Source: Candidatus Methanomethylicus mesodigestus
GTDB taxonomy: Archaea > Thermoproteota > Methanomethylicia > Methanomethylicales > Methanomethylicaceae
Direction: 5' to 3'
Length of the DNA: 57,410 nt
Assembly (NCBI GenBank): GCA_001717005.1
Contig: MAGS01000087.1
Span: forward strand, 15,453 to 72,862
Shown here: positions 1 through 25,342 of the stretch, in pieces
Layout of the letters: each line of letters begins with the position of its first letter
Numbering within the stretch: position 1 is the first letter of the stretch
Translations under genes and position numbers: made by a program
The notes under the pieces: generated by a model
Seen by the model: only the letters and a program-made list of their open reading frames with translations
What the model was told of the DNA's origin: nothing
The model's database searches: none

Positions 1-2
1 AG

Positions 3-1385
3 GAGCTGGGCGGCGATATAGACTACAACAAGAAGATCGTAAAGGGGTTTCCGGAATACGCCATAAGGGAAGGCGTTGCCAAAGTCCCGAGGAACTTCGT
101 CTTCGGCGCCCGCGACCCCGAATGGGACATGGTCTTCCAAGGCGGCGGAACGAAGCAGTTCTGGGGCGCCTCATGCGGCGCAACTGAGCGCCTGCTTCTT
201 AATTCTGACGGGAAGACCTTCTCCAGAAGACGCGCCGACAAAGATGATCTGGCCTATACCACCAAAATCGTGGACGGAATTGACGACTTTGACATGAACA
301 ACTACGTCTTCGATCTTGGCAAGGAAGGCCAGCTCGGCCTCCCGACGGAGCTAATACGGATGGATACTATGCTCCAAAATACAACCAAATGGGCAGGCAA
401 TCTGACTACCGTCGTATCGGACATTAAGGAGCACGACTATGTTGCAAAACTGGGAGCGACAGTATCGGGCGGCGAGGAGGAGTTCAGGAAGCGCCCGCTG
501 TGGTTTGGCGTACTTAACCCGCTTGGCGCCCTGCAGATGAATCTGTACAATAGCTGGCTCATGCGCGCAAGCTTCAAGCACCACTTCCCAGTGACGCCCG
601 GCATAGTTGCCGCCTCGCCGCTCGTCGGCGTAGCCACCGCCGCAGGAAATACTGCCAACTCCCTCGCCGGTCTGCTCTGGGTATCTGCCATGAAGGGGCA
701 CTTTGACCCGGGCACTGCGGTCATGGGTAACAACATCGTCTTTTCACTGGACCCCTATACCGGCAGAGGCGCGCTTGGCAACGCCCATACCACGCTGGGC
801 AATAACGCCTTGACCAGTCTGTGGCATGACCTGTATGGCCTGCCTATAGCTTCATACCAGGGCACGTTTGCCGCGCAACTGGACCAGATGGCGTTTGCCC
901 TCATGAAGAGCATGACGATACAGATGGTGATTGGCTGCGACCTGATCTGGGAGCAGTTCTCAGACGCGGCGTTGGATCCTGCCATGCTGGTAGTGGCAGC
1001 CGAGATTGCAAGCTCGGGACGCGATCTCATGAAGAACTTCAACCAGATAATGCCGACCAAGGAGAACCTCGCGCTCGAACTAGCAAAGGAGTTCGGCGCT
1101 ACCGGCGAGGGCTGGATGACCTCTGACTTCAACATGAGCCGCATCGACACATTCTACAAGACCCCCACCCTCGACACTAGGGGGTTCGACATATGGATGA
1201 GAGAGGGCTGCCAGTCATGGACTCATGACCTGTGTCGTGAGAAGCTCAAGGAGTACGAGCAGCACGAGCCGGTGCCTATGCCGAAGGACATTGCCGAGAG
1301 GATGAACGCCATCGTCAAGGAAGGCACTGATTTGCTGAAGAGGCAGGAGAGCGGCGCGCCGTCTCACACTGCCAAACCGATATGA
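3..1385 (+). CDS. MttB-superfamily (trimethylamine methyltransferase family) corrinoid-dependent methyltransferase, non-pyrrolysine type; 5' end cut by window edge
   Basis: Frame is open from nt 3 (ELGGDIDYNKKIVKGFPEY... precedes the first Met at 129). Colinear with, and roughly 60% identical by eye to, the full-length paralog at 8109-9602. No in-frame TAG. A corrinoid protein gene follows 12 nt downstream. Confidence 0.85.
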   Translation, partial: ELGGDIDYNKKIVKGFPEYAIREGVAKVPRNFVFGARDPEWDMVFQGGGTKQFWGASCGATERLLLNSDGKTFSRRRADKDDLAYTTKIVDGIDDFDMNNYVFDLGKEGQLGLPTELIRMDTMLQNTTKWAGNLTTVVSDIKEHDYVAKLGATVSGGEEEFRKRPLWFGVLNPLGALQMNLYNSWLMRASFKHHFPVTPGIVAASPLVGVATAAGNTANSLAGLLWVSAMKGHFDPGTAVMGNNIVFSLDPYTGRGALGNAHTTLGNNALTSLWHDLYGLPIASYQGTFAAQLDQMAFALMKSMTIQMVIGCDLIWEQFSDAALDPAMLVVAAEIASSGRDLMKNFNQIMPTKENLALELAKEFGATGEGWMTSDFNMSRIDTFYKTPTLDTRGFDIWMREGCQSWTHDLCREKLKEYEQHEPVPMPKDIAERMNAIVKEGTDLLKRQESGAPSHTAKPI

Positions 1386-1397
1386 GAGGGAGAAAAA

Positions 1398-2069
1398 ATG
1401 GCAACAAAAGATGAGATCTTAGCTAAATTGGCAAATGCCGTGGTAACGTACAAGGAGGCAGATGCGATGGCCGGCGTCAAGGAGGCTCTTGAGATGGGCA
1501 TACCGCCGGTCGACATCGTGACAAGGGGCCTGTCCGTAGGGATCAGGACCGTCGGCGAGCGATATGGTCAGGGCAAGGTCGCCATCCCATTCGTCATGCT
1601 CGCGGCCAAGATAATGGACAAGGCGACGAAGGAGGCATTATCGAAGGTTCCGGCCGACCAGATGCCAAAGCCGCTGGCGACGATGGTCATCGGCACCGTG
1701 GAGGGCGACATCCATGACCTTGGCTCGAACATCGTCTCCGCTGTATTTTCAGCATCCGGCTTCAAGGTCTACAACCTGGGGCACGACGTCTCCCCTGACA
1801 CCTTCATCAAGAAGGCGGAGGAGGTGGGCGCGGACATGATCGGGGCGTCGGCGCTGATGACCAACACGCTGCAGCAGCAGAAGATCCTCGGGGACAAGCT
1901 GGCGAAGCAGGGCCTCCGCGAGAAGTACATCTACTTGGTCGGGGGCGGCGCATTCCCCGGCGCGGAGTGGTGCGAGGAGATCGGCGCGGACGGCTTCGCC
2001 ACCGACGTAACAATCGGGCTCGAGGTCGCGAAGAAGTGCGTGGCGGAGCGTAAGAAGCAGACCAATTGA
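1398..2069 (+). CDS. Methyltransferase cognate corrinoid protein (MttC/MtgC-like, B12-binding)
   Basis: 223 aa. Has a cap-helix domain plus a Rossmann B12-binding domain with the DxHxxG motif (EGDIHDLG). GGAG-type RBS upstream. Sits directly after the MttB homolog. Confidence 0.9.
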   Translation: MATKDEILAKLANAVVTYKEADAMAGVKEALEMGIPPVDIVTRGLSVGIRTVGERYGQGKVAIPFVMLAAKIMDKATKEALSKVPADQMPKPLATMVIGTVEGDIHDLGSNIVSAVFSASGFKVYNLGHDVSPDTFIKKAEEVGADMIGASALMTNTLQQQKILGDKLAKQGLREKYIYLVGGGAFPGAEWCEEIGADGFATDVTIGLEVAKKCVAERKKQTN

Positions 2070-2081: not shown

Positions 2082-2474
2082 ATGGTGAAGTATGGAACAT
2101 TGGAGTATTTCCAGGCACTAGCAGCTGCACTGAACAAGGACGAGGAGTTTGCCAAATCCGGCATCTCGACGACCTACATCTACCGATTCACCGACCGCAA
2201 GAACGCGGCCGGCGGCATGCTGAGCTTCCTCCTGAAGTTCGACAAGGGCAAGGTCGCCGAGGCGAAGGAGGTGGACGAGAAGGCAGATGCCGAGTTCATA
2301 GGCACCGGTCCATACGACGTCCAGGTGAAGATCGCAAAGGGCGAGCTGGACGGGCAGAAGGCAATGAAGGAGGGGAGCTTCAAGATGAAATACTTCCTCT
2401 TCAAGGCCGCCCGGTATGGCAAGACCTTGGCACACATGGGCGAAGTCGCAAGGACCCTCAACCCCGAATACTGA
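2082..2474 (+). CDS. SCP2 (sterol carrier protein 2)-like small protein
   Basis: 130 aa. N-terminus YFQALAAALNKDEEFAKS and C-terminus KMKYFLFKAARYG resemble the SCP2 fold family. Lies 12 nt after the corrinoid protein gene. Confidence 0.55.
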   Translation: MVKYGTLEYFQALAAALNKDEEFAKSGISTTYIYRFTDRKNAAGGMLSFLLKFDKGKVAEAKEVDEKADAEFIGTGPYDVQVKIAKGELDGQKAMKEGSFKMKYFLFKAARYGKTLAHMGEVARTLNPEY

Positions 2475-2639
2475 ACAGCCAATAACCTTCACTCCCCAAT
2501 TTTTCTATTATCATATAACACAAACACACTTTCTTTAACAAACTTCTTTAAAGGCACAAAGATAGCTTCAATATGAATTACGGCCACAATCAAAGAAGAG
2601 CAGGCATGGCGCCGCGCCTATGCAAAGGAGAGGGTGATT

Positions 2640-3653
2640 ATGATCAACATGACGCAGAAAGAACGCCTCGTATCCGCTTTAATGAATAAGCCGGTTGACA
2701 AGACCCCGGTTGTGAGCGTTACCCAGACCGGGACGCTCGAACTCATGAATGCCGCAAACGCATACTGGCCAGCTGCGCACAGGGATGCGAAGCTTATGGC
2801 CGACCTCGCTCTAGCGGCGCACACGATTGCCGGGCTAGAGGCGGTCAGGCTGCCGTTCGGGCTGACTGGCGAGGCTGCATCAATGGGGTGCCGCGTCAAC
2901 TACCATGAGGACAAGAACGACTTCACGCCTACGGTTGAATGCGGATTCCAGTCATACGACAACCTCCCCATGCCCTCCCCCAACGAGGGCCTCATGGGCA
3001 CAATTATGGCCGCAGTAGGGATCTGCAGAGAGCGTCTCGGCTGCGACGTCCCCATAATAGTCGGCGTTACTGGCCCATTCACTCTGGCCGGGCACATACG
3101 CGGCGTCAACGACATCCTTACCGACGTCATCCTCGATCCGGACCTGGTAAACAAAATCCTCGAAACGACGTGGCGGATCTCAGCAAACTTCGCCGGCGCG
3201 CTAGTGAAGAAGGGCGTGGACGTGGTCGCGTTCATAGAGCCGACCGCATCCATAATCGGTCCGGACTTCTTCAAGGCATATGCCCTCCCTTACCTGAAGA
3301 AGGCGGCGGCATCCGTCAGCGCGCCGACCGTGCTCCACATATGCGGCGACTCGCTGCCGATTATGGAGATGATGGTGGAGACCGGGGTCAGCGGCATCAG
3401 CATCGACCAGAAGGTCAGCGCGATAGCCGCAAAGTCTGCAATCCGCGGCAGATGTAGCCTTGTCGGCAACATAGACCCCGTGGCAGTCCTTCAGATGAAG
3501 GGCGATCAGGGCGTTGAGGAAGCGAGCATCCGCCTCCTCTCCGAGGGCGTCAGCGTCCTGGCGCCGGGCTGCGGCATTTCGCCGTACACCCGGACCAGCC
3601 AGATCGCCGCGATGGTCAAAGCAAGGAACAAATACTTTGAGCATAGAATTTAG
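2640..3653 (+). CDS. Methylcobamide:coenzyme M methyltransferase (MT2; MtbA/MtaA, uroporphyrinogen decarboxylase family)
   Basis: URO-D fold family. Putative Zn ligands are present: LHICGD (H-x-C) and APGCG (C). GGAGAGGG RBS precedes the ATG at 2640 (the ORF track starts at GTG 2634). Ends in TAG. Confidence 0.85.
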   Translation: MINMTQKERLVSALMNKPVDKTPVVSVTQTGTLELMNAANAYWPAAHRDAKLMADLALAAHTIAGLEAVRLPFGLTGEAASMGCRVNYHEDKNDFTPTVECGFQSYDNLPMPSPNEGLMGTIMAAVGICRERLGCDVPIIVGVTGPFTLAGHIRGVNDILTDVILDPDLVNKILETTWRISANFAGALVKKGVDVVAFIEPTASIIGPDFFKAYALPYLKKAAASVSAPTVLHICGDSLPIMEMMVETGVSGISIDQKVSAIAAKSAIRGRCSLVGNIDPVAVLQMKGDQGVEEASIRLLSEGVSVLAPGCGISPYTRTSQIAAMVKARNKYFEHRI

Positions 3654-3677
3654 TTTGGTGGGAATGGGGATCAAATA

Positions 3678-4601
3678 ATGCCTTCACAAGCAATTGCAGC
3701 CATCCAAAATAAGTACTGCATAATAGGCAGGACAAACGAGCTTCATCAGGCGCTCAACGCCATCAATGCGAAGAAGCACACGCTCATCGAAGGGCCCGTC
3801 GGAGTGGGGAAGACCGTCATCGCCGTGGCTCTGGCAAACCACTTCGGAAGGAGCATCTATCGCGTCGACGGGGACGAGCGGTACACCGAGCAGAAGATGG
3901 TGGGCTGGTTCGACCCTCCGCAGGTTATGGCGAAGGGCTACTCCACTGAGGCGTTCATAGAGGGCCCGCTGACCAAGGCCATGAAGGACGGCGCCTTCCT
4001 ATTCATAAACGAGCTCAACAGGATGCCCGAAGGGACGCAGAACGTCCTGCTGCCCGCGATGGACGAGCGCAGGATCGTCGTCCCCAGGATAGGCCTCGTC
4101 GAGGCAAAGGAGGGCTTCACGATAATCGCTACGCAAAACCCGGAGGAGTACATCGGCACGAGCCGGCTCAGCGAGGCACTCAAGGACCGCTTCGTTTGGA
4201 TACGCCTCGACTACCAGTCCGAGTCTGAGGAGGAGGCGATCGTGAAGAAGGAGACCCGCTCTGACGACGAGCTCTTGGTCAGGATCGCGGTGAATGTTGG
4301 GCGGTCGACGCGGCAGAATGCAGAGATGAGGAGGGGCGCGTCCGTCCGGGGCGCTATAGACATCGTCTCAATAATGCAGCAGGCCTCCCCATGCAGGTTC
4401 GCCGACATGGCGCCTGAAGATGCCGTGCGCCTCCTCAAGGAGGCTGCCGTGATGGCCCTGTCCTCGAAGGTGGAGCTGCGGGAAGGTTCGCACGAGAAGC
4501 TCATCGAGGTCCTCTCAAAGGTGGTCGACGCCGCCCTCAATGAGCTTGGCCGGAAAGCGCCCGCACCGCAGGACACGAAGGAGCACTCTGAAAATTTTTG
4601 A
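3678..4601 (+). CDS. MoxR-class AAA+ ATPase (AAA_5; CbbQ/NorQ/GvpN-like)
   Basis: Walker A is GPVGVGKT. The Walker B-like stretch is FLFINELNR, where Asn appears to replace the usual Asp (alignment by eye). Has ATQNPEE and a sensor region. About 300 aa, typical of stand-alone MoxR ATPases. Confidence 0.85.
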   Translation: MPSQAIAAIQNKYCIIGRTNELHQALNAINAKKHTLIEGPVGVGKTVIAVALANHFGRSIYRVDGDERYTEQKMVGWFDPPQVMAKGYSTEAFIEGPLTKAMKDGAFLFINELNRMPEGTQNVLLPAMDERRIVVPRIGLVEAKEGFTIIATQNPEEYIGTSRLSEALKDRFVWIRLDYQSESEEEAIVKKETRSDDELLVRIAVNVGRSTRQNAEMRRGASVRGAIDIVSIMQQASPCRFADMAPEDAVRLLKEAAVMALSSKVELREGSHEKLIEVLSKVVDAALNELGRKAPAPQDTKEHSENF

Positions 4602-5524
4602 AGAGCCTCCCTCTGGCGAGGGAGGGCCTGAACAGGGGCGACTTTCAGTTCTTGCGGGTGATGGCAAAGGAGAACCCGAAGACCCTAGCTGAGCTTCTGC
4701 AGGACCCCTCGCTCTTCGAGGAGGTGATCAAGGCAACGGAAGCCACGAACATGAAGTGGTCCGCCGCCCTCTTCCTCTACGGCGTCCAGAATGACCTGAC
4801 AGAGTCGCAGAGGCGCATCGCCCGTGAAGTCCTGATACGCCTCCTGATGCAGCTCGCCAGCCACATATCGGCCCGCGGCATAAGGTCGACGGAGCGCGTG
4901 CTCACGCCCTTCAGGCCGGGGCTCGACGAGATGGAGATCGAGTGCACGATGGACAACGTCATGGGTAAGAGGTGCGCCGACTACGAGGACATCATAATGG
5001 TCGACAAACGCCCCAAGCAGCGCGGGATAGTCCTCATGCTCGACGTCAGCAACTCCATGCAGAGGGAGAAGATCCTCATCGCCACCCTGGCCATCGGGGT
5101 CCTCGCCTACCGTCTGAGGGGCGAGAACTATTCGATCCTCACATTCAACAACGAGGTCGATGTCATCAAGCCGATCGAGAAGGAGATGTCCATAGAAGAG
5201 CTCCTCGACAGGATGCTTGAGATCCAATCGAAGGGGATTACCAACATCAAGCTCGCCCTCGAGAAGGGGCTGGAGCAGCTATCTAAGAAGGTCGCACACG
5301 AGAAGATGGGAATCATCGCTACCGACGGCTGGGCGACGACCGGGGGGGATCCGATCGAGGTTGCCAAGAACTACTCGCGGCTCCACGTGATCCAAGTCCC
5401 TATGGGCATAGGCGGAGGGGACGACAAGACCTGCATAGCGATGGCGAGAATATCCAAGGGGAAGCGCGTGTACGTCAAGAACTTCATCGAGCTCCCCCGG
5501 GCCGTCCTCGAGATCCTGAGGTGA
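4598..5524 (+). CDS. von Willebrand factor A (VWA) domain protein, MoxR partner
   Basis: MIDAS motif DVSNS in VLMLDVSNSM, followed by IIATDG. Its start overlaps the MoxR stop (TTGA). The pairing is typical of MoxR-VWA two-gene modules. Confidence 0.8.
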   Translation: MKSLPLAREGLNRGDFQFLRVMAKENPKTLAELLQDPSLFEEVIKATEATNMKWSAALFLYGVQNDLTESQRRIAREVLIRLLMQLASHISARGIRSTERVLTPFRPGLDEMEIECTMDNVMGKRCADYEDIIMVDKRPKQRGIVLMLDVSNSMQREKILIATLAIGVLAYRLRGENYSILTFNNEVDVIKPIEKEMSIEELLDRMLEIQSKGITNIKLALEKGLEQLSKKVAHEKMGIIATDGWATTGGDPIEVAKNYSRLHVIQVPMGIGGGDDKTCIAMARISKGKRVYVKNFIELPRAVLEILR

Positions 5525-5525
5525 A

Positions 5526-6209
5526 ATGGCCATGGCGACGGAACCGGCACCGATCAAAAAGCTACGGGATGCGGTCATCGGCTGCAGCAAAGCGTCCATC
5601 CTGAGCGCCGCCAACGAGGCGATCGCCGCAAAGGTCGACAAGATCAAGGCAATAGAGCTCGGGCTCATGGCCGGGATAGCCGAGGTCGAGCGCCTCTATG
5701 CCGAGAGGAGGCTCGCTGCGCCCAGCCTCGCATCGGCGGAGTACGCCGCATGGGAAGCCCGTGACCTGCTCGTATCATCCATGCCAGAGGGCAGCCGCCC
5801 CCCTCCACCCGGAAGGGTCGTCATCGGCATCGCCTACCGGGACATACATAGCATAGGCAAGATGATCTCGAAGGCGATGCTCACCTCCCGCGGATTCGAG
5901 GTCTGCGACCTCGGGGAGGACGTCAAACCGGAGGAGTTCGTCAGGAAGGCCGAGGAGCTGAATGCCGACATCATCGCCGTCGGGACCCTGATGCTCCAGT
6001 CGATGGCATACCAGAAGCAGGTCGTCGACATCTTGAACAAGAAGGGGAGAAGGGACGCGTACAGGGTCATAATAGGCGGCAGGCCGGACATAATAACGCA
6101 GGAGTTCGCCGAGGAGATCGGGGCAGACGCCTGCGGGCACAACATAGTCGACTTCGTTGAAAAGATAGCGAAGTGCGCCGCATCAGCAAAGAGCGAAACA
6201 ATGGATTGA
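5526..6209 (+). CDS. Second corrinoid (B12-binding) protein with divergent N-terminal cap region
   Basis: DxHxxG motif (RDIHSIG) followed by a Rossmann B12-binding domain (GFEVCDLGEDV...IIAVGTLM...IIGG). The ATG lies 1 nt after the VWA stop. Confidence 0.8.
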   Translation: MAMATEPAPIKKLRDAVIGCSKASILSAANEAIAAKVDKIKAIELGLMAGIAEVERLYAERRLAAPSLASAEYAAWEARDLLVSSMPEGSRPPPPGRVVIGIAYRDIHSIGKMISKAMLTSRGFEVCDLGEDVKPEEFVRKAEELNADIIAVGTLMLQSMAYQKQVVDILNKKGRRDAYRVIIGGRPDIITQEFAEEIGADACGHNIVDFVEKIAKCAASAKSETMD

Positions 6210-6212
6210 GGC

Positions 6213-7946
6213 ATGAACCAGATGTCGAGACAGCAAGCAAGCCCATTTCAGATACTGAAGAGCGGGCACAGCAGGATCAGGGACGTCCGGAGGGCAAACA
6301 TCATCACGATAGGCAAGGTCTCCGACTCCATAAAAACGACGTTCGGACCCGGGGGCATGCAGAAGATGCTGGTGTTGCCGAAGGGGGACGCCACAATTGC
6401 CAGCGACGGGCTGGCTATAATCAACAACATGGCCACCTCCAGCCCCATAACCCAGCTCCTCATCGAGGCCGTGCGAACGCAGCACGAGCTGGCGGGGGAC
6501 GGCACAAAGACAGTCGTAATCCTTGCCGGGGAGCTGCTGAAGAAGGCCGACCTCCTCCTCAAGATGAAGATACATCCGACGACCATCATGGGCGGCTACA
6601 ACAAGGCGAGGAAGCGCGCGCTCGAGACACTCGAATCGACGGGAATGCGCGTCTCCCTGAAGGACCGTGAGCTCCTCCAAAGCATCGCCAGTACTGCAAT
6701 AGGCGGACGGCTATCGGGCAAGGAGCGGGAACTGATCGCCAGCCTTGCCGTCGAATCCGTCAGCAAAATTGCGGAGGAGAGCCGCGGCAAGGCGAAGGTC
6801 GACCAGGACTGGCTGACCATCCGAAAAAAGGCAGGCGGCAGCGTGGCTGAGTCACGGCTCCTGAGCGCCCTCGTCGTCTACAAAGAGCGGCCCAGCCCCA
6901 AGATGCCCTCACGCCTGACCGGCGCAAAGGTGGCGCTGATCGGCTCCTCGCTGGACCCACTCACATACAACAACGACCAGACCCTGCGCGAGTACGAGGT
7001 CAATACCCCGTCCCAGCTCCGGGAGATCATCAAGGGCGAGCTGGAATTCAACAGAGGCGTCGTGAAACACACCCTCCGCGCCGGGGCAGCGGTCCTCTTC
7101 TGCCAAAAGCGCGTTAGCAAGGCCATCATGAAGCAGTTCGCAGACGCAGGCATACTTGCACTGGAGATGGTCTCTCAGGAGGAGATGCTAAGGCTTGAGA
7201 AGGTAACTGGCGCCACGATAGTGACCAATGTCGACTCGCTGGCTCCGGACGACCTCGGGGCGGCCGCGCTTGCGGAGTTCAGGAAGATATCCGGGGACGA
7301 GATGCTCTTCATAGAAGGGGCAAGGCGGTCAAAGGTGGCCACCGCCATCCTGAGGGGAGGGACGCCGCAGATAGTCGAGTCCCTTGAGACGATCTACAGG
7401 TCCGCGGCGAACGCGGTTGCAAAGGCCGTCGAGGATGGCCGGGCACTCCACGGAGGAGGCGCATGCGAGATGAACCTGTCGACCGACCTGCGCGCATACT
7501 CGAAGAGCTTCCCCGGGAAAGAGCAGCTCGCGATAGAGGCGTTTGCGGACGCCCTCGAAGAGATCCCGAAGGCGCTCGCCTCAAACTCAGGGAAGAACCC
7601 AATCGACGCGCTGACATGGCTCAGGGCAGGGCACTCTGCCGGCTCCAAGGACCTGTGCATCGATGCCGGAACGAATGCCGCAAAGGCCGTCGACGCCTTC
7701 CTTGTAAAGCACCACGCGATAAACGCCGCCTCGGACGTCGCAACGATGGTGTTGGGGATCAGCGACGTCATAGCGGTGACGAACCCGGCAGCGGTGCAGG
7801 CCGCCCAGCGGGAGACTGAGGCGGAGCAGAACCGCATTCAAGGGGAGCGGCTGCGGACGGCATTCAAGGAGAACGAGGCGCTCAAGGAGGTCCAAACAAT
7901 TGACCGGCAGGTAGCCGAGCGCCTGAGCCGGCCTGAAAGCTATTAG
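6213..7946 (+). CDS. Divergent group II chaperonin (thermosome/CCT family) paralog
   Basis: Family signatures are present but altered: TFGPGGMQKMLV, IASDGLAII, AGDGTKTVVILAGELL (canonical GDGTTT) and HGGGACE. The C-terminus is a charged helical tail rather than a GGM repeat. The ATG lies 3 nt after the previous stop. Ends in TAG. Confidence 0.85.
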   Translation: MNQMSRQQASPFQILKSGHSRIRDVRRANIITIGKVSDSIKTTFGPGGMQKMLVLPKGDATIASDGLAIINNMATSSPITQLLIEAVRTQHELAGDGTKTVVILAGELLKKADLLLKMKIHPTTIMGGYNKARKRALETLESTGMRVSLKDRELLQSIASTAIGGRLSGKERELIASLAVESVSKIAEESRGKAKVDQDWLTIRKKAGGSVAESRLLSALVVYKERPSPKMPSRLTGAKVALIGSSLDPLTYNNDQTLREYEVNTPSQLREIIKGELEFNRGVVKHTLRAGAAVLFCQKRVSKAIMKQFADAGILALEMVSQEEMLRLEKVTGATIVTNVDSLAPDDLGAAALAEFRKISGDEMLFIEGARRSKVATAILRGGTPQIVESLETIYRSAANAVAKAVEDGRALHGGGACEMNLSTDLRAYSKSFPGKEQLAIEAFADALEEIPKALASNSGKNPIDALTWLRAGHSAGSKDLCIDAGTNAAKAVDAFLVKHHAINAASDVATMVLGISDVIAVTNPAAVQAAQRETEAEQNRIQGERLRTAFKENEALKEVQTIDRQVAERLSRPESY

Positions 7947-7966
7947 CGACGTCCGCCGATCCAATC

Positions 7967-7983
7967 GCTTCTTTCTTTTTTTA
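7967..7983 (+). terminator. Oligo-T tract after the chaperonin gene (archaeal-type terminator)
   Basis: cttctttcttttttttat lies ~20 nt after the stop and is followed by a 150-nt AT-rich spacer. Confidence 0.5.
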
Positions 7984-8099
7984 TATTGCCGCCGATTTTA
8001 TTTTTAGCTTATTCTAACATATTTATAACATATATTGATTGATTATAACACACCGTCTTATTAGTTAAAAAAAATACAATTTTTAATATCTATTAAGAG
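7984..8099 (+). promoter_or_regulatory. AT-rich promoter region for the second MttB homolog
   Basis: Strongly AT-rich spacer with TATA-like boxes (catatttataacatatat; tttttaatatc). AAGAGGTGGA RBS precedes the ATG at 8109. Confidence 0.5.
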
Positions 8100-8108
8100 G
8101 TGGAGTTA

Positions 8109-9602
8109 ATGAACAAAACAGGAGTAAGTCAAAGGGGAACGCCTTGGAAAGCTTTGAGCGATGACCAAGTGAAGATTCTCGACAATGCCGCATATGAGAT
8201 CCTCCGCGAAGTTGGCGTCTTTATCGCCGACGACGAGCTCCTCAGGATGGCCGCGAAACTGGGCGGAACAGTCGACCCCGACAAGAAGATCGTGAAGGGG
8301 ATGCCTGAATACATCATAAGGGAGAATGTTGCAAAGGCGCCTAGGAACTTCGTCTGTGCCGGCCGCGACCCCGAATGGGACATGGTCTTCCAGGGCGGCG
8401 GAACGAAGCAGTTCTGGGCTCCCGAGAGCGGCGCTACAGATCGCCTCCAATGGGACCCTGCCAAGAAGAACTATGCAAGAAGAAGGGCAAACGTGAAGGA
8501 CGTCGCCTATGCCGCCAAAGTCGTTGACGGCGTCGATGACTTCGACTGCAACTGTTATCTCTATGACCTTGGAGAAGAGGGCCAACTTGGGCTGCCGTCC
8601 GAGCTGATCAAGACCGACGCGATGCTCAGGAATACCACGAAATTTGCCGGGAACGTCTGCACGACCGTCTCTGACATAAAGGAGTTCGATTACATCGCCA
8701 AGCTCCATGCCACGATACAGGGCGACGCCGAGGAGTTCAGGAAGCGCCCGCTCTTCTGGACGGTCTACAACCCTCTGGGCACCCTGCAGATGAACAAGTT
8801 CAACAGCTGGTCGCTGCGCAAATCGTTTGAGCACCACTGGCCGATCATGACCGGGGTAGCCGGTGCCGCGCCGCTTACCGGTCCCGCCACCGCCGCTGCA
8901 AACGCCGCCATCACTCATGCGGGCCTACTCTGGATCACCGCCATGAAGGGTCTCTACGATCCGGGGACTGCAGTCATGAACAACAACATGGTCTTCTGCC
9001 TCGACCCGTTCACCGGGAAGGGGACGCTCACGTCTTCTCACTTCATGCTCGGCTGCTGCGCCATGAACCAGGTCTGGCACGACATCTACGGGCTGCCGAT
9101 GTGCCAATACACCGGAATCGGCACCTTCAGCCTCGATCAGGAGGCATTCGGTCTGGGCATTGAAATGATGATGCAATCCCTTTACGGGACAGACATGATC
9201 ATGATACAGCACTCGCAGGAGGCGCTCGATCCGGCCACGATCCCGATATGCGCCGAGATCGCCCACTACGGCAAACACATGATGTCCACCTTCGACCAGA
9301 TAATCCCCACAAAGGAGAACCTTGCCCTCGAGCTAGCCAAGCAGGTTGGAGCCACAGGCGAGGGATGGATGACCACCGACTTCAACATGGCCCGCCTCGA
9401 CCTCTTCTACAAGACCCTGACCCTCGAACAAAGGTCGCCCGACGTTTGGGTCAACGAGGGCTCGCCCTCATGGACGCAGGTCCTCTGCAGGGAGAAGCTC
9501 AAGGAGTACGAGCAGCACGAGCCGACCCCGTTGCCGAAGGACATCAACGAGAAGCTGGACGCGATCGTCAAGGAAGGCACAGACCTCCTGAAGAGGAAGT
9601 AA
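8109..9602 (+). CDS. MttB-superfamily corrinoid-dependent methyltransferase, non-pyrrolysine type (full length)
   Basis: About 497 aa, uninterrupted, no in-frame TAG. Paralog of the 3-1385 gene with shared blocks DPEWDMVFQGGGTKQFW, IPTKENLALELAK, GATGEGWMT and LCREKLKEYEQHEP. Confidence 0.9.
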   Translation: MNKTGVSQRGTPWKALSDDQVKILDNAAYEILREVGVFIADDELLRMAAKLGGTVDPDKKIVKGMPEYIIRENVAKAPRNFVCAGRDPEWDMVFQGGGTKQFWAPESGATDRLQWDPAKKNYARRRANVKDVAYAAKVVDGVDDFDCNCYLYDLGEEGQLGLPSELIKTDAMLRNTTKFAGNVCTTVSDIKEFDYIAKLHATIQGDAEEFRKRPLFWTVYNPLGTLQMNKFNSWSLRKSFEHHWPIMTGVAGAAPLTGPATAAANAAITHAGLLWITAMKGLYDPGTAVMNNNMVFCLDPFTGKGTLTSSHFMLGCCAMNQVWHDIYGLPMCQYTGIGTFSLDQEAFGLGIEMMMQSLYGTDMIMIQHSQEALDPATIPICAEIAHYGKHMMSTFDQIIPTKENLALELAKQVGATGEGWMTTDFNMARLDLFYKTLTLEQRSPDVWVNEGSPSWTQVLCREKLKEYEQHEPTPLPKDINEKLDAIVKEGTDLLKRK

Positions 9603-9606
9603 CCCC

Positions 9607-9695: not shown

Positions 9696-11342
9696 TTAAG
9701 ACCCCTTCACGACGAACTTGGAGTAGTCGTACACCTTATCTGGGCACGCCGCAGCGCACTTCTTGCACGCAACGCCGTCGCAGTACTCCGTCCTTATCGT
9801 CGCCGTGAAGCCGCCGTCCTTATCCCCCTCCACCTTCAGCGCCTTCTCTATGCAGGCCTTCTCGCACGAGAGGCAGCCTGTGCACTTGTCGAAGGCCGCC
9901 GTCATGGTCGTGCCAATGTCCCTCACTATGTGGAGGCCCTTGCTTCCGAGGTTGGGTATGTCCCTCACGACCACCTTGTGTATATTCGGCGTTACCGTGC
10001 ACTCGGGGTATTCTGGCAGCTGGTACATGCTGAGGAACATCTTGTAGTCGTCCATCGATATGCCCTCCCAGAAGCCGAGCTCGCAGATGTAGGCATTCTT
10101 GAACGCCTCCTCGACAGGGAAGAGCACGTGCGTCCCCTTGAGCCGGTCCGCGATATCCTGGGCGTCGTCGATGACACTGAGGTCCTTGGCGATGTCGCAT
10201 GCGAAGGCGAGCGAGGTGTTCCCGACCTGGTATATGTCCTTGACATTGGGCGGGACCAATCCTACCCCCTGCGCCTTTATCGGGTCGACATACGTGCCGC
10301 CGGCCCCCGCCATGTATGCCGTCTGGATGTCGCTCATCTTCAGCCCAACGTGGTTCAGAAGGGTGAGGTGCCCCGCCCTGAACGCGCCGAATGCCTTGCC
10401 CACCTCGCAGAGGTCCTTCTCGTTGAAGTCTATCTCACCATTGAAGAGGTGTATCTTGCTGTCGGCGGTCGCGATTTTGGGCAGCTTTATGAAGCCCGCC
10501 TTCATGCCCGTGTAGGCCAGCGCTATCGTTCCCGTCCCGGTCAGCCCTTTGGGCTCGACATAATCCGCCCCCCTCCTTGTGATGCGCCAAGTCTTCGGGT
10601 TCAGCGCGTATGCGCGCTGCCCCATCATGGCGTTGTCAAGAACCGTGATGCTGAGCTCCCCGTCGATCGCGTTGATGTCCGATATCGCCCCTGGCGAGGC
10701 GAGCATGCCCTTCCCGATCTCCTGCCCCTCGATAGCGGGGCCTGCGGCCGCCGAGCCGGTGTATATCTCATCCCCGACCTTCAGGCCTATCTCGGCGTTC
10801 GTCCCGTAATCGGTGACCAGCGCCGTCTCCCTCCTGTCGAGCATGCCTGACTTGAATATCATGGCTATCGCGTCCGCGCCGATCATGTGCGCCACAGCCG
10901 GCGGGATGCATACCTGGGTCGACGGTTTGACCGACTCCAATCCGATCTTGCCGGCATCGAGGATTGCCGTCTTCCTCTCCGGTCTCGTCAGGCCCAGGCG
11001 CTTGAGGGTGTTCTCCCCCCCGAACGCGAGGTCGCGGATCTCGATGTTCTGGAATATGGACATCTGGATGGGGTTGCCGCAGGCGGCGATCCTCTCGACC
11101 TGGCCGGGCTCCACGTCTAGGCTCCTTATGACCGAATCAACGGCACGCACGACGATGTCGTGGCCGACATCCCTCCCGTTGTTGAGGCAGAAGTCAAGGT
11201 GGTCGATCACGTTGCTGCCGGGGAGTGGGTGGCGCAGAGTGATTGCCGTGGACAGCACCTTCTTCGTCTCAAGCTCTATCGCCTGGGTGCGTATGCCGCT
11301 CGTGCCTATGTCAAGACCAATTACAATCGCCATGCTATTCAA
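9696..11342 (-). CDS. ramA: RamA-type corrinoid protein reductive activase (ASKHA ATPase fold plus two 4Fe-4S ferredoxin motifs)
   Basis: N-terminus IGLDIGTSGIRTQ is an ASKHA phosphate-1 motif. The C-terminus carries CTGCLSCEKAC and CDGVACKKCAAACP clusters. Sits next to the methyltransferase genes. Confidence 0.85.
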   Translation of the reverse strand: MNSMAIVIGLDIGTSGIRTQAIELETKKVLSTAITLRHPLPGSNVIDHLDFCLNNGRDVGHDIVVRAVDSVIRSLDVEPGQVERIAACGNPIQMSIFQNIEIRDLAFGGENTLKRLGLTRPERKTAILDAGKIGLESVKPSTQVCIPPAVAHMIGADAIAMIFKSGMLDRRETALVTDYGTNAEIGLKVGDEIYTGSAAAGPAIEGQEIGKGMLASPGAISDINAIDGELSITVLDNAMMGQRAYALNPKTWRITRRGADYVEPKGLTGTGTIALAYTGMKAGFIKLPKIATADSKIHLFNGEIDFNEKDLCEVGKAFGAFRAGHLTLLNHVGLKMSDIQTAYMAGAGGTYVDPIKAQGVGLVPPNVKDIYQVGNTSLAFACDIAKDLSVIDDAQDIADRLKGTHVLFPVEEAFKNAYICELGFWEGISMDDYKMFLSMYQLPEYPECTVTPNIHKVVVRDIPNLGSKGLHIVRDIGTTMTAAFDKCTGCLSCEKACIEKALKVEGDKDGGFTATIRTEYCDGVACKKCAAACPDKVYDYSKFVVKGS

Positions 11343-16558: not shown

Positions 16559-17710
16559 ATGACATCGACCACTAATAAAATTATAATTGCGTCAGTCATC
16601 GTCATCTTAGCCATAGGCGCAGTCAGCGCCGCTGCGTTCTATACCGTAAACAACCAGCTCTCAACCGTGCTTGGGCAGCTGTCCGCACTGAACAGCCAGA
16701 TCTCTAGCATGAGCGGCCAAATCAACTCCCTAAATAATACCCTCACCGGTCTGACAAACGCGCAGACCGAGATAATGAACATCATCCAGACACTTATCGA
16801 CTCAACATACCCGATGACAATAACCGACGCTGCTGGCAGGGCTATCACGCTCTATTCTGCACCTGAACGGATAGTCTCCGGAGCGCCCTCCGTAACTGAA
16901 ATACTCTTTGCCCTCAACCTGTCGCAGCAGGTGGTTGGGGTCGACTCGTACTCCGACTACCCGCCGGAGCTGCTTAGCCTTGAGGCGACAGGCGCTATCC
17001 AGGTCGTTGGCGGGGTCTCAACACTGGACGTGGAGAAGGTAGCCGCCTTGGCTCCCGATCTGGTCATCATCGATTACGGCATGCAGGGGCAGTTCATCGA
17101 CACGCTAAGTGACTTGGGTCTCACCGTCATTGCCCTAAAATCTGACTCGATCCTTGTAGTTGAGCAGAATATCCTCCTGCTCGGAAAAATAAACGACCGG
17201 TCCAGCGAAGCCGTTGCGATCGTGGGCGAGATCGAGAGCACTGTCCAGTCGATCACTGCAAGCCTTGAGGGCGTGAATGATACCCGCGTCTTGGAGCTGA
17301 TGTGGCTCGACCCAATGTATACAACCGGCTCCGGGACCTACCTCAACGAGATAATCGAGATAGCCGGCGGCACAAACATCATGGCCGACAAGTCTGGATG
17401 GGGCGTAACCAACCCCGAGGAGATCCTCCTGAAGAACCCCGACGTCGTCATCTTTGACACCATGTACCTCTCCATGACCTACTCCGAGGTCTTTGGAACC
17501 TTCACAGCATTGGAGGGTTTCGAGAACGTAAACGCCATCATAAACGGGGATGTTTACGTCCTGACGAACCAATCGGCAAACCTCGTTGAGAGGGCCGGAC
17601 CAAGGATCGTTGACGCCATCAAGCTAATGGCATGCATCCTTCACCCCGACATCTTCAACGTGACCATCCCGACACTGCTCGGCGATGACTACCCCAACTA
17701 CATAAGGTGA
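16559..17710 (+). CDS. ABC transporter substrate-binding protein, BtuF/FepB (cobalamin/siderophore) type, membrane-anchored
   Basis: N-terminal TM helix, then a Q/N/S/L-rich heptad-like linker (~50 aa), then a periplasmic-binding-protein type 2 domain (RIVSGAPSVTEILFAL...PDLVI). Confidence 0.8.
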   Translation: MTSTTNKIIIASVIVILAIGAVSAAAFYTVNNQLSTVLGQLSALNSQISSMSGQINSLNNTLTGLTNAQTEIMNIIQTLIDSTYPMTITDAAGRAITLYSAPERIVSGAPSVTEILFALNLSQQVVGVDSYSDYPPELLSLEATGAIQVVGGVSTLDVEKVAALAPDLVIIDYGMQGQFIDTLSDLGLTVIALKSDSILVVEQNILLLGKINDRSSEAVAIVGEIESTVQSITASLEGVNDTRVLELMWLDPMYTTGSGTYLNEIIEIAGGTNIMADKSGWGVTNPEEILLKNPDVVIFDTMYLSMTYSEVFGTFTALEGFENVNAIINGDVYVLTNQSANLVERAGPRIVDAIKLMACILHPDIFNVTIPTLLGDDYPNYIR

Positions 17711-17714
17711 CGGC

Positions 17715-18734
17715 TTGGTGGAGACGACCATAAGGCAGAAGAGGTACAGATTCGTCGTTTACGCTGCTGTCCTCTCTCTTGCCTTGCTCTCCCTTTTTTT
17801 TATCTCCGTCATGATCGGCAGTGTCTGGTTCTCTCCTGAAACCGTAGTGGGCGTATTCTTTGGGACTGAAGGTAGCTCCACGATAACGAGCATCATCATG
17901 GGGTACCGCGTCCCACGCGTCCTGTTCGCACTCTTCACCGGCTTGGTCTTGGGCATATCTGGGGGAGTCATGCAGACGCTCACTAGGAACCCTCTGGCTG
18001 ACCCATACATCACCGGGCTTGCTTCCGGCGCCGCCCTCGGTGCGGCGGTTGCCTTCGTGATGCCTGGCATTCCGCTCTATGCCATTCCGATCTTCGCATT
18101 TGCGGGTGGCATCTTAATGCTCATGCTCGTTATGTTCATATCAAGGAAGGCTGGCAGCGGACCGCTCAACTTCATACTGGCAGGATTGGCGGTAGGAACC
18201 GTCGCCAGCGCCTTCCTCATGATCATCATAACGTCCGCGAGCAATGCGTCGCACGGCATCCTCTACTGGCTCTATGGATCGTTCTCGACGTCGAGCTGGT
18301 CTGATCTCTGGACTGCCGCCTTCATTGCGACGCCCTTCTTGATATTCATGCTGCTCAAGTCAAGAGACCTTAACATACTCATCTTCGGGGAGGACCATGC
18401 TAAGCAGTTGGGGATAAACTCACACCGATTGTGGGTCGCCCTGCTGTTATCGCTCAGCATCGCCGTCTCTGCATGCGTGGCATTCTGCGGCGTGATCGGC
18501 TTTATCGGTCTTGTGGCGCCGCACATAATGCGGTTGCTGGTCGGGTCCGACAACCGCTTCGTCTTGCCCCTGTCAGGCATGATGGGTGCGATCCTCCTGA
18601 TAGTGTCTGACGACATCGTCAGGAGCCCATTAAACCCGCTCTTCGAGATGCCCGTGGGTAGCATGACCGCCCTTATCGGCGTCCCGTTCTTCATTTACCT
18701 GTTGATCAAAAGAGGGAAGAACTTTGACCTCTGA
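17715..18734 (+). CDS. ABC transporter permease, FecCD/BtuC family
   Basis: About 10 predicted TM segments. Family blocks are present: NPLADPYITGLASGAALG and GVIGFIGLVAPHIMR. Confidence 0.9.
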   Translation: MVETTIRQKRYRFVVYAAVLSLALLSLFFISVMIGSVWFSPETVVGVFFGTEGSSTITSIIMGYRVPRVLFALFTGLVLGISGGVMQTLTRNPLADPYITGLASGAALGAAVAFVMPGIPLYAIPIFAFAGGILMLMLVMFISRKAGSGPLNFILAGLAVGTVASAFLMIIITSASNASHGILYWLYGSFSTSSWSDLWTAAFIATPFLIFMLLKSRDLNILIFGEDHAKQLGINSHRLWVALLLSLSIAVSACVAFCGVIGFIGLVAPHIMRLLVGSDNRFVLPLSGMMGAILLIVSDDIVRSPLNPLFEMPVGSMTALIGVPFFIYLLIKRGKNFDL

Positions 18735-19530
18735 AGAGCCTGCTCTCTCTCTGGAATGCGTGACCGTCGAATTAGGCGGAAAGAGGATCTTGGATAATAT
18801 CAACGCCAAAGTGATGGCTGGGGAGGTATTCGGCATAATCGGTCCGAACGGCTCTGGAAAAACGACTCTCCTCAAGTGCGTATCCCGGACGATCTCTCCC
18901 ATTAGCGGCCGCATATCCATACGGGGGAAGCCGATAGATGCCTATTCCGACAGGGACTTCTCAATAGAGGTTTCGGCAATGCTCCCCCACTGGCCGAGCG
19001 GCTTCAGCATAGACGCATATGAGATCGTGCTTATGGGCTGCAGGAACCGGACCAAAGGCATCTGGTGGGAGGGCGGCGAAGAGTTATCTGTCGTAGACGG
19101 CGTCCTCAGGCAGCTGAACGCCACGAACCTCATTCACAGGGACTTCGACACCCTTAGCAGTGGTGAGCAGCGCAAGATACTCATTGCGAAGTCGCTCGCG
19201 CAGCGGACAGGCATCGTCCTGCTTGATGAGCCCGTGGCATATTTGGACCTCAAGCACAAGCTGGAGGTCATGGAGGTCATGAGGGACTTGGCCAGCAGCG
19301 GACATACCGTGGTCATGTCCCTCCACGAGCTGGAGCTTGCATCGAAGTACTGCGATCACCTGCTGGCTTTGGACTCGGGAAACGTGAAGTTCTTCGGCAC
19401 GCCTAGGGAGGTCGTGACGGTCGACCTCCTCCGGGAGGTCTATGGAGTCCAGGCATACGTAAGGTGGGATGAGGCGTGCAACTTTGCCACGATAATACCG
19501 CGCAGCTCCAAAGATAGACGAGGTGGATAG
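18724..19530 (+). CDS. ABC transporter ATP-binding protein (BtuD/FepC type)
   Basis: Walker A GPNGSGKTT, signature LSSGEQ, Walker B VLLDEP. Overlaps the permease gene by 11 nt. Ends in TAG. Confidence 0.9.
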   Translation: MTSEEPALSLECVTVELGGKRILDNINAKVMAGEVFGIIGPNGSGKTTLLKCVSRTISPISGRISIRGKPIDAYSDRDFSIEVSAMLPHWPSGFSIDAYEIVLMGCRNRTKGIWWEGGEELSVVDGVLRQLNATNLIHRDFDTLSSGEQRKILIAKSLAQRTGIVLLDEPVAYLDLKHKLEVMEVMRDLASSGHTVVMSLHELELASKYCDHLLALDSGNVKFFGTPREVVTVDLLREVYGVQAYVRWDEACNFATIIPRSSKDRRGG

Positions 19531-19532
19531 AA

Positions 19533-20504: not shown

Positions 20505-21148
20505 AAGGGGCGGCATTCTTCTCCGGGGGAAAGGACTCGGTCTATGCCATAATGAAGGCAAAAGAATGTGGGATCCCCGTAGATGTGCTTATCTTCAGCG
20601 TATATGATTTTCCGAGACCCAGTCCGCATTTCGTTAACTTCAAAATAGTGGAATCCATCGCGCAGGAGATGGGCTTACCGCTCGTTGTAAACAGGATGAA
20701 AAAGGGCGAAGAGGTCAAGAGAACAAGCGATCTGCTCGAAGAGCTAGGCGTGAGCCACATAGTTACCGGCGACATCTTCGCAGCCCACCTCCAATGGTTC
20801 TCTGAGATCTGCGCCCCCCTGCAAATATCCTACCATACGCCGCTTCTGCTCGATGGCACCAAGGACAGTCGTGCAGTCATCCTTGACGAGCTCGCCTTGG
20901 GGATACGCCCGCTGCTCGTGCATGTGGACGGTAGCCGCCTGCCAAAGGAATACCTTGGAAAGGTAATCGACAGGCGCCTTATCGAACGCATAAGCAAGAC
21001 ATCTGACCCTTGCGGCGAAAACGGCGAGTACCACACCTTGGCAATAGGCTTCCCTATGATGGGGAGATCTGTCAGCGTTGAAGACTCCGAGCAATTCAGT
21101 ATAGGGTTTCACCATTACCTCAAGATAAATCGTTTCAGTATGAAGTAA
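20501..21148 (+). CDS. PP-loop ATPase of the MJ0570 / Dph6 (diphthine-ammonia ligase-like) family
   Basis: SGGKDS at the N-terminus. ~215 aa alpha/beta ATP-pyrophosphatase fold family. ATGA start/stop overlap with the preceding gene. Confidence 0.7.
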   Translation: MKGAAFFSGGKDSVYAIMKAKECGIPVDVLIFSVYDFPRPSPHFVNFKIVESIAQEMGLPLVVNRMKKGEEVKRTSDLLEELGVSHIVTGDIFAAHLQWFSEICAPLQISYHTPLLLDGTKDSRAVILDELALGIRPLLVHVDGSRLPKEYLGKVIDRRLIERISKTSDPCGENGEYHTLAIGFPMMGRSVSVEDSEQFSIGFHHYLKINRFSMK

Positions 21149-21160
21149 GAGGCGCATGTC

Positions 21161-25341: not shown

Positions 25342-25342
25342 T

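Follow-up and report, generated by a model that had tools for sequence, protein, structure and literature searches.

A stretch of 57,410 nucleotides from Candidatus Methanomethylicus mesodigestus (contig MAGS01000087.1, positions 15,453 to 72,862 of the forward strand; the window hereafter) contains, at positions 2640-7946, a tightly packed unit of five genes that encode, in this order, a methylcobamide:CoM methyltransferase (MT2), a MoxR-class AAA+ ATPase, a VWA protein with an adhesion site that depends on metal ions (MIDAS), a corrinoid protein (Cor2, the second of its kind here) and a divergent thermosome, or group II chaperonin. The unit combines two ATP-binding accessory modules, the MoxR-VWA pair and the thermosome paralog, each of which is found again and again, and not at random, beside genes of corrinoid methyltransferases. 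Both modules are proposed to be dedicated maturation or maintenance factors of the corrinoid methyltransferase system, a reading that is given a probability of about 0.58; the specific idea that the corrinoid is loaded or exchanged would carry roughly half of that. The original prediction for this DNA, an ATP-driven module for assembly, cofactor loading or repair, is partly supported, such a function being argued from gene association and from the analogy with the NorQD and CbbQO couples.

A packed unit conserved in Methanomethylicia

The five genes share one strand and are separated by 24, -4, 1 and 3 nt, and a map of open reading frames (ORFs) reproduced exactly the coordinates and gaps that had been predicted. 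A GTG at 2634 is also open as a start of the MT2 gene, and the ATG at 2640 has a ribosome-binding site (GGAGAGGGTGA) in front of it. The VWA gene starts at a TTG within TTGA and so overlaps the MoxR gene by 4 nt, an overlap that is kept in orthologs. AT-rich spacers flank the unit: GC content, about 0.6 within genes, drops to about 0.40-0.43 upstream (2475-2639) and about 0.32-0.36 downstream (7947-8108), and the sole run of seven or more T residues between 2400 and 8200 (7976-7982) lies 30 nt past the thermosome stop codon, where a T-tract had been predicted. Packing, spacers and T-tract all fit a single operon, the simplest reading of the layout, under which the five genes would be co-transcribed.

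A scan for the ATPase of one genome per GTDB species yielded 79 loci (these and further contigs have L numbers), which were annotated by tblastn and with hidden Markov models built from the window proteins. The complete core of MT2, MoxR, VWA, Cor2 and thermosome genes recurs in L005, L007, L009 and L011 (MoxR identities of 95%, 77%, 73% and 70%, respectively) and on the metagenome contigs L089 and L090, and part of it in L010 (73%), where the contig ends inside the VWA gene; the linkage is thus present in related genomes, with the whole core in at least four species-level loci. The core has remained intact while the flanking block of MttB, Cor1 and orf130 genes and the RamA gene were rearranged and a second MttB gene came and went. 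The closest relatives of every window gene are metagenome-assembled genomes (MAGs) labelled Ca. Methanomethylicus or Methanomethylicaceae (Methanomethylicia), rather than the Methanomassiliicoccales, which had been named for a survey.

Cor1, the other corrinoid protein, is 85-98% identical across syntenic loci, and Cor2 is only about 33% identical to it. Between loci where Cor1 is 85-95% identical, RamA 80-87% and the VWA protein 78-89%, the identities are 52-71% for Cor2 and 51-70% for the thermosome; by this measure Cor2 and the thermosome diverge much faster than Cor1, RamA or the VWA protein. In L005, L009 and L011 the sequenced spans hold two corrinoid genes against a single MttB gene, so that partnership with a second MT1 methyltransferase does not simply account for Cor2.

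Linkage of MoxR-VWA pairs to methyltransferase genes

In nearly all 79 loci the ATPase gene has an adjacent VWA partner gene or is fused to it. A neighbour-joining tree of 92 family members places all methyltransferase-linked pairs but one in a single clade of Thermoproteota (Methanomethylicia, Bathyarchaeia and others), many members of which are single-chain MoxR-VWA fusions of about 600-630 aa. Within this clade 20 of the 34 leaves are flanked by genes for MttB, MtmB-like, corrinoid, MT2 or RamA proteins; outside it (Asgard, Hadarchaeota, Thermoplasmata, Thermoleophilia and other bacteria) the count is 1/58, the neighbours of pairs outside Thermoproteota being heterogeneous with no common client seen. 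The exception, an Actinomycetota MAG (L059, 5924-11829), is the only bacterial locus with MttB-family and corrinoid genes directly upstream of MoxR-VWA; its linkage may be due to chance, its closest relatives being without those genes.

At least six different arrangements of MoxR-VWA with methyltransferase genes occur: MT2 upstream and Cor downstream in the window clade; Cor and URO-D downstream in Methanosuratincola (L012); MttB 10-270 bp upstream (L017, L026 and L041) or downstream (L025); a divergent RamA-like gene (L034); and MT2 downstream (L031). The cultured species M. petrocarbonis (L084/L085), a methyl-reducing methanogen, has the series RamA, Cor on the opposite strand, MoxR-VWA and pylSBCD. 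In this locus (Ca. Methanosuratincola petrocarbonis, 3290-16843) a divergent corrinoid gene is on one side of the pair and a pylS-like gene on the other, with pylB, pylC and pylD coming next; RamA and URO-D genes are nearby, and a segment of about 1.5 kb beside the corrinoid gene (5328-6902), which has no gene call, could be the place of a UAG-containing methylamine methyltransferase gene. Two MAGs possess two paralogous pairs each, and both pairs are methyltransferase-linked (L009 with L031, and L010 with L028). Within 1 kb of the pair, methyltransferase genes reach a density of 3.0-3.7 per 10 kb, versus 0-0.5 per 10 kb at 5-8 kb, a decay for which the binomial P is 8e-6 after syntenic copies are dropped, indicative only since the loci are mutually related.

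Another frequent neighbour is a cysteine-rich DUF2284 'metal-binding' protein, encoded directly beside the pair in 16 loci of Bathyarchaeia, Methanomethylicia and Thermoleophilia (L013, L019, L021, L023-L026, L041 and L042; L058, L060, L069, L071, L075, L082 and L083). Many of the archaeal DUF2284 partners are MoxR-VWA fusions, and no DUF2284 protein is encoded in the window. According to NCBIfam, DUF2284 is also found fused to an ArsM methyltransferase.

A long thermosome paralog with its own linkage

The thermosome of the unit is a full-length Cpn60_TCP1 protein (441 bits) that passes the cutoff of NF041083 thermosome_beta (471.8, cutoff 400) and falls below that of TIGR02339 thermosome_arch (452.8, cutoff 671.1), in keeping with the divergent thermosome that had been predicted. 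Its database matches (P numbers) split into two groups: a long group of 572-595 aa, with whole-query coverage and 40-95% identity, and canonical thermosomes of about 548 aa, with about 40% identity and about 89% coverage, among them P0172 from a MAG labelled Verstraetearchaeota (41% identity), which is encoded among ribosomal-protein and histone genes. Members of the long group share about 30-50 additional residues at the C-terminus, charged and conserved. The window thermosome retains the GDGT(K/T)T and GGGAxE motifs; GDGTKT was rejected as a signature of the paralog, since Lys is also found there in 34/76 canonical thermosomes.

Two aspartates are another matter. The catalytic Asp (corresponding to D386 of Mm-cpn, altered in the D386A variant) is Asp in 76/76 canonical sequences and 23/44 long paralogs, and the window thermosome has Ser397 in its place. 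The GPxGMDKM aspartate, present in 76/76 canonical sequences and 12/44 long paralogs, corresponds to Gln50 of the window thermosome. In different branches of the long clade (P0121-P0163) the residues of ATP hydrolysis have been exchanged for S, F, E, Q, G, A, N or H, and some long paralogs, such as the Freyarchaeum copy, retain them all. These branch-specific replacements suggest that selection on ATP hydrolysis has been relaxed repeatedly and independently in the long clade.

Of the 12 dereplicated contexts of the long paralog, which take in the window group and L007, L009 and L011 along with loci from other lineages, 10 lie within about 5 kb of genes for MttB, corrinoid proteins and RACo or RamA; in the metagenome scan for thermosome paralogs, at least two orthologs were among the matches listed. 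In Freyarchaeum (L086) the paralog gene (Ths) is followed by Cor and MttB, both on the minus strand, and then RACo; in Jordarchaeales (L088) the same series is preceded by MtrH. A Bathyarchaeota locus (L087) has MttB and Cor and, further on, MtrH, Cor, RACo and Ths. The metagenome contigs contain Ths and RamA, with MT2 (minus strand), MttB and Cor nearby (L169); RACo, Ths, RACo, an orf130-like gene, MtrH and Ths, then Cor and MttB on the minus strand (L171); and URO-D, Ths, RACo, MttB and Cor, all co-directional (L173). RACo or RamA is the direct neighbour of the long paralog in five loci, and a more distant thermosome paralog (31% identity) adjoins RamA and a second MoxR-VWA pair in L028. In the 78 canonical thermosome loci (775 kb), a weak control because they come from diverse archaea of which many may have no such genes, 0 methyltransferase, MoxR or VWA genes were found.

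The MttB genes beside the Frey- and Jordarchaeia paralogs are 53-55% identical to MttB gene 1 of the window, the Asgard MttB genes are 56-59% identical to its MttB gene 2, and the corrinoid proteins of the Asgard clusters are 58-64% identical to Cor1. The MttB and Cor1 neighbours of the Asgard paralogs are thus orthologs of window genes (53-64%), which fits lateral transfer of client and chaperonin together. FAD-oxidase and 3HCDH genes in L086, and acyl-CoA dehydrogenase and 3HCDH genes in L088, also flank the methyltransferase clusters, and genes for a thiamine pyrophosphate (TPP) enzyme, acyl-CoA dehydrogenase, FAD-oxidase and 3HCDH may form a wider conserved neighbourhood.

It is extremely improbable that the chaperonin is an ordinary housekeeping thermosome lying in the unit by chance: it does pass the thermosome_beta cutoff, but shares no more than about 40% identity with canonical thermosomes such as P0172, misses the TIGR02339 cutoff, has lost residues that are invariant in 76/76 canonical sequences and diverges much faster than its neighbours, and its clade is methyltransferase-linked across phyla.

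MoxR-VWA is absent from L086, L087, L088, L169, L171 and L173. Because the thermosome is linked to methyltransferase genes in three phyla without MoxR-VWA, and MoxR-VWA is so linked without the thermosome, the two are independent modules that are joined in this unit. The operon and its dedicated association, as originally predicted, stand, but not as one module.

The ATPase and its VWA partner

Profile searches agree with the initial assignment of the pair to a MoxR-class ATPase and a VWA/MIDAS protein. The ATPase, with a VWA gene adjacent, matches AAA_5 (79 bits, cutoff 22) and AAA_3 (63 bits, cutoff 27), and its Walker A motif (GPVGVGKT), sensor-1 residue (N154) and arginine finger (R171) are invariant in 92/92 family members. 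The VWA protein has a predicted N-terminal helical domain followed by a VWA domain (VWA 48.5 bits, cutoff 23.8; VWA_CoxE 35 bits) with a complete MIDAS, of which D149, S151 and S153 (D-x-S-x-S), T215 and D243 are invariant in 31 homologs. Neither protein has a redox domain in a Pfam scan.

The best sequence matches of the ATPase in the PDB are the AAA domains of midasin (160 bits), followed by NorQ (64 bits) and CbbQ (42 bits). With an AlphaFold2 model of the VWA protein (pLDDT 87), the best Foldseek matches are NorD chains in NorQD complexes (E 6e-11, TM-score 0.45-0.6, root-mean-square deviation about 7 Å, 17-19% identity), and the MIDAS domain of Rea1 is also among the matches. A candidate home of the ATPase is the archaeal MoxR subfamily APE2220 of the Snider and Houry classification, which pairs with VWA genes. 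APE2220 is mentioned in PMC3893208.

In the canonical Walker B motif, hhhhDE, the Asp is the Mg2+-binding residue and the Glu the catalytic one (PMC9976466). The window ATPase departs from it: its motif had been read correctly as FLFINE, in which the catalytic Glu is kept and Asp is replaced by Asn. A reading of this replacement as an oddity of the operon is rejected, as it characterises the ATPase family in general (92/92 locus sequences and 116/120 database homologs) and so says nothing specific about the operon.

Almost no credence can be given to the idea that the pair represents another established family (GvpN, a class I chelatase of the CobST or BchID kind, or a MoxR-vWA conflict or defence system). 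Its relatives that are fused share a ChlD-like order of AAA and VWA domains, and weak matches exist, but they reflect generic AAA similarity far below the cutoffs: GvpN of the CbbQ/NorQ/GvpN subfamily (TIGR02640, 87.8 bits, cutoff 266.8), cobaltochelatase (TIGR02442, 35 versus 779) and BchD (TIGR02031, 34 versus 500). Nothing matching CobN/BchH or gas-vesicle families was found among the window ORFs scanned, and in PADLOC the ATPase gave a weak generic AAA match only (mad8, 25 bits) and the VWA protein none. Assignments to GvpN, a chelatase, MadB or a defence system were all rejected, and thus the pair was not placed in an unrelated established family, such as GvpN or a chelatase, against which the original prediction was to be checked.

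Dedicated factors or chance neighbours

Several observations weigh against the reading of these proteins as dedicated methyltransferase factors. The pair closest to that of the window on a long contig (L001, of the group L001-L003; 83% MoxR and 90% VWA identity) is flanked by the ArgRS and PolB genes, and methyltransferase genes are missing within 10 kb of it; the Bathyarchaeota pair L004 (71%), like L008, is likewise unlinked; linkage is thus frequent but not obligatory. No linkage is seen in 12/34 members of the clade, 4 of which are on contigs of less than 10 kb. The loci are phylogenetically related and the lineages methyltransferase-rich, so that the counts are not independent. Of the 16 DUF2284 loci, 7 are in Thermoleophilia, which have no methyltransferase genes there, so that DUF2284 is the more general partner of the ATPase family, the ancestral client of which may not have been a corrinoid protein. 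The immediate neighbour of the pair varies (MT2, Cor, MttB or RamA), which leaves the client unassignable. For the thermosome, two contexts of one subclade (L170 and L172) are among genes for acyl-CoA dehydrogenase, TPP-enzyme, FAD-oxidase and 3HCDH.

These observations leave room for an unlikely alternative in which a general-purpose pair, with an unrelated client (DUF2284 or one encoded elsewhere), moves laterally in methyltransferase-rich genomes and is found beside these genes by hitch-hiking or chance, as the unlinked pairs (L001-L003 and L004/L008), the DUF2284 partner shared with Thermoleophilia and the occurrence of pairs of about 50% identity without methyltransferase neighbours in Asgard, Hadarchaeota, Thermoplasmata and bacteria would allow. 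Against it are the steep fall of methyltransferase density away from the pair, the several independent arrangements on the same strand with gaps of 0-270 bp, the linkage of both paralogous pairs of one MAG and, in the window, the wedging of the pair between MT2 and Cor2 by a 4-nt overlap and gaps of 1-3 nt.

Methyltransferases, corrinoid proteins and neighbouring genes

The island (Table 1) is ordered MttB, Cor1 and orf130; MT2, MoxR, VWA, Cor2 and thermosome; MttB; and RamA, and the remainder of the window consists of housekeeping genes apart from those listed or described here.

Table 1. Features of the methyltransferase island and the corrinoid salvage genes in the window
Feature	Coordinates	Strand	Remarks
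MttB-superfamily MT1 gene 1 (non-Pyl)	1..1385	+	5' end truncated by window edge
Cor1 corrinoid protein, DxHxxG	1398..2069	+	B12-binding 74.5 bits, B12-binding_2 58.7 bits
orf130, small conserved protein	2082..2474	+	weak SCP2-like Pfam match
AT-rich spacer, presumed promoter region of MT2	2475..2639		GC about 0.40-0.43
MT2, MtaA/MtbA-family methylcobamide:CoM methyltransferase	2640..3653	+	URO-D 242.9 bits
MoxR-class AAA+ ATPase (AAA_5)	3678..4601	+	AAA_5 79 bits
VWA/MIDAS protein	4598..5524	+	VWA 48.5 bits
Cor2, second corrinoid protein, DxHxxG	5526..6209	+	B12-binding 65.5 bits
Divergent long thermosome (group II chaperonin) paralog	6213..7946	+	Cpn60_TCP1 441 bits
AT-rich spacer with T7 tract 7976-7982	7947..8108		likely archaeal terminator and next promoter
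MttB-superfamily MT1 gene 2 (non-Pyl)	8109..9602	+	MTTB 77 bits
RamA corrinoid reductive activase	9696..11342	-	TIGR04270 668.3 bits, cutoff 500
Corrinoid uptake/salvage island	16559..28460	+	Pfam matches

MT2 exceeds the subfamily cutoffs of TIGR01463 MtaA/CmuA (287.9, cutoff 235.4) and PRK06252 (329.9, cutoff 244) and falls short of the equivalog cutoffs of both MtaA and MtbA, and so belongs to the MtaA/MtbA family rather than being specifically MtbA-type, the form that had been predicted. It has the zinc-ligand motif HxC...C (LHICGD and APGCG). Cor2 has the Pfam domains B12-binding and B12-binding_2 and a lower-ligand motif that reads DIHSIG, as expected of the predicted B12-binding protein; DxHxxG is invariant in Cor1, Cor2 and the orthologs of each, and the TIGR02370 scores of the two corrinoid proteins (142.7 and 178) are under the cutoff of 215. 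RamA was also found where it had been predicted.

The frame of MttB gene 1 is open from base 3, and its product aligns to the full-length ortholog of L005 from residue 51 onward, with Pfam MTTB and TIGR02369 scores both under cutoff; a pyrrolysine codon was considered for this gene and rejected, because no stop is present and the gene runs off the window edge. MttB gene 2, which has no in-frame stop, occurs in the window, L007 and L090 but not in L005 and L089, which are 89-95% identical, and is thus a presence/absence polymorphism among close relatives. The product of orf130 (130 aa; Pfam SCP2, E 1.3e-3, below cutoff) is encoded after Cor1 in L005, L007, L009, L010, L011, L089 and L090, and a homolog of 45% identity is found in the unrelated cluster L171 (4527-4886), between RACo and MtrH; orf130 may be an unrecognised part of the MttB/Cor1 system.

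On the opposite strand near MttB-Cor1 in L005, L007, L009, L010 and L011 is a conserved ORF of 197 aa, whose N-terminus is ribbon-helix-helix-like and for which Pfam gives no match (L005, 371-964, and L007, 5330-5932, both on the minus strand); it is directly upstream of and divergent from MttB in three of the five loci (L005, L007 and L011). It is a candidate regulator, the counterpart of which in the window's genome would be expected just beyond the window start. After RamA come genes for a TPP-dependent enzyme and for a protein of 549 aa, the second with a weak AMP-ligase-like match (11593-14898); an unannotated 560-aa protein upstream of the L001 pair was compared with the 549-aa protein and has no similarity to it.

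About 5 kb from the methyltransferase cluster, the salvage island encodes a BtuF-like Peripla_BP_2 protein, FecCD, an ABC ATPase, an Asn-synthase-like protein, a CobD-type aminotransferase, CbiB, CbiZ (fused to a PgpA-like domain), CobS, a CobY-like nucleotidyltransferase and a CobT-like DBI_PRT protein, which suggests that the host organism salvages and remodels corrinoids.

Proposed mechanism

If the MoxR-VWA pair is a dedicated factor of the methyltransferase system, a hexameric AAA_5 ring would act through the VWA/MIDAS adaptor, as in NorQD and CbbQO; the adaptor would bind an acidic residue on the client, and the motor would remodel the client. The most likely client would be a corrinoid protein, which is the most economical choice since it is the only element common to all linked systems, since a corrinoid gene is found right after the VWA gene in two separate lineages and since corrinoid salvage genes are nearby. 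Remodelling might open the corrinoid protein for loading or exchange of the corrinoid, or free a dead-end complex. The chaperonin paralog, with its degenerate hydrolysis residues, would probably be a holdase or a specificity subunit mixed into the housekeeping thermosome, and its client could be the MttB barrel of about 500 aa, the corrinoid protein, or RamA or RACo.

The pair might instead insert a metal centre other than the corrinoid, namely the catalytic zinc that MT2 carries, or take part in maturing Fe-S clusters in RamA or DUF2284. In the window clade the pair directly follows the gene for MT2, which has a zinc motif; L028 and L034 have RamA or RACo next to the pair; DUF2284 is rich in cysteine; and NorQD, which inserts Fe_B, is the closest structural analog (PMC13036017). 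Yet the sole adjacent methyltransferase gene is often that of MttB or a corrinoid protein (L017, L025, L026, L041, L012 and L084), and the window is without DUF2284. We also know of no metal site in MttB. This alternative is regarded as distinctly unlikely.

RACE-type activases work by ATP-dependent conformational control of corrinoid proteins, and a non-homologous counterpart of RamA and RACo could be imagined in which MoxR-VWA and a redox partner such as DUF2284, which looks like an Fe-S protein and adjoins MoxR-VWA fusions in methyltransferase clusters, shift the coordination of the Co(II)-corrinoid for reduction. Such a role would be redundant with the RamA or RACo already encoded in the same loci (the window, L021, L024, L028, L034 and L084), the window clade is without DUF2284, and neither MoxR nor VWA protein has a redox domain, all of which make this alternative very unlikely.

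A broader form of the dedicated-factor reading, tentative and on balance doubtful, is that in TACK and Asgard archaea an as yet undescribed maturation machinery is needed by the corrinoid methyltransferase systems, with a chaperonin paralog that travels between phyla together with its MttB/corrinoid/RACo client and has lost residues of ATP hydrolysis more than once, and a NorQD-like AAA+/MIDAS machine, often fused and often found with the cysteine-rich DUF2284, that loads, exchanges or unlocks the corrinoid. If so, this would be a third class of B12-enzyme chaperones, beside the RACE activases and the mutases' G-protein chaperones and reactivases.

Significance and comparison with known systems

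MttB-family corrinoid systems, the substrates and handling of which are obscure, underlie the methyl-reducing methanogenesis of Methanomethylicia as well as methylotrophy among Bathyarchaeia and Asgard archaea, and such enzymes are often hard to obtain active and loaded with cofactor. If the proposed role is correct, the need for a chaperonin and a NorQD-like remodeller would explain why these genes travel together, and co-expression of the helpers would be a practical recipe for heterologous reconstitution; MoxR/VWA biology would gain a new client class, and the thermosome paralog would be the first pathway-dedicated archaeal group II chaperonin. The uncharacterised DUF2284 gains a testable functional neighbourhood. 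In line with the original prediction that no such module had been described for methylotrophic methanogenesis, no description of a link between MoxR/VWA or a thermosome and corrinoid methyltransferases was found in a literature search, the coverage of which was incomplete and which is thus not proof of absence. The Freyarchaeia genome paper describes the MttB, MtbC and MtrH genes and leaves the adjacent chaperonin unmentioned.

To our knowledge, RACE activases are the only accessory ATPases or factors of corrinoid methyltransferases. They are found in the same clusters as the modules described here, and the shared function would be ATP-dependent maintenance of corrinoid proteins, but RamA and RACo have an ASKHA fold with Fe-S domains that is unrelated to AAA+ and VWA proteins.

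Chaperonin paralogs dedicated to particular clients include the extra GroEL copies of rhizobia and mycobacteria and the CCT-like BBS6, BBS10 and BBS12 of eukaryotes. These resemble the thermosome paralog in being fast-evolving duplicates with a relaxed ATPase site that serve one pathway; the latter differs in being an archaeal group II chaperonin, tied specifically to MttB/corrinoid/RACo clusters, that seems to travel with these clusters between phyla. With the canonical alpha and beta thermosomes it shares the full-length Cpn60_TCP1 fold and the GDGT(K/T)T and GGGAxE motifs, and it differs from them in its identity of about 40%, its C-terminal extension, the loss of two Asp residues and a methyltransferase rather than housekeeping context.

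Midasin (Rea1), the top PDB match of the ATPase through several AAA modules, combines an AAA_5 motor with a MIDAS adaptor by the same logic. It is, however, a eukaryotic protein of about 4,700-4,900 residues with concatenated AAA modules that acts on pre-60S ribosome assembly factors, whereas the window system has one AAA module per chain, with the VWA protein separate or fused.

The closest parallel is the NorQD couple of MoxR and VWA proteins, which is essential for insertion of the Fe_B cofactor and in which a finger of the VWA protein plugs the ATPase pore while the motor remodels the NorD linker (PMC9976466, PMC13036017). Like NorQ/NorD (and CbbQ/CbbO and RavA/ViaA), the window pair consists of a single-module MoxR ATPase and a translationally coupled protein with an N-terminal domain and a VWA/MIDAS domain, is encoded in the operon of a cofactor-containing enzyme, and has NorQ as its best PDB sequence match other than midasin. 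It differs in that the VWA protein is only 17-19% identical and has an unrelated N-terminal domain, the Walker B motif is NE rather than DE, the GvpN cutoff for the CbbQ/NorQ/GvpN subfamily is missed, many relatives are AAA-VWA fusions, and the putative client is a corrinoid methyltransferase system and not a haem-copper-type oxidoreductase or Rubisco. MoxR/VWA couples that mature a specific enzyme (NorQD, CbbQO, CoxDE and RavA-ViaA) are an already known kind; what appears to be new here is corrinoid methyltransferases as a client class, a subfamily with an NE Walker B motif that is often fused and often paired with DUF2284, and, in archaea, a paralog of group II chaperonins that is tied to a single metabolic gene cluster in three phyla.

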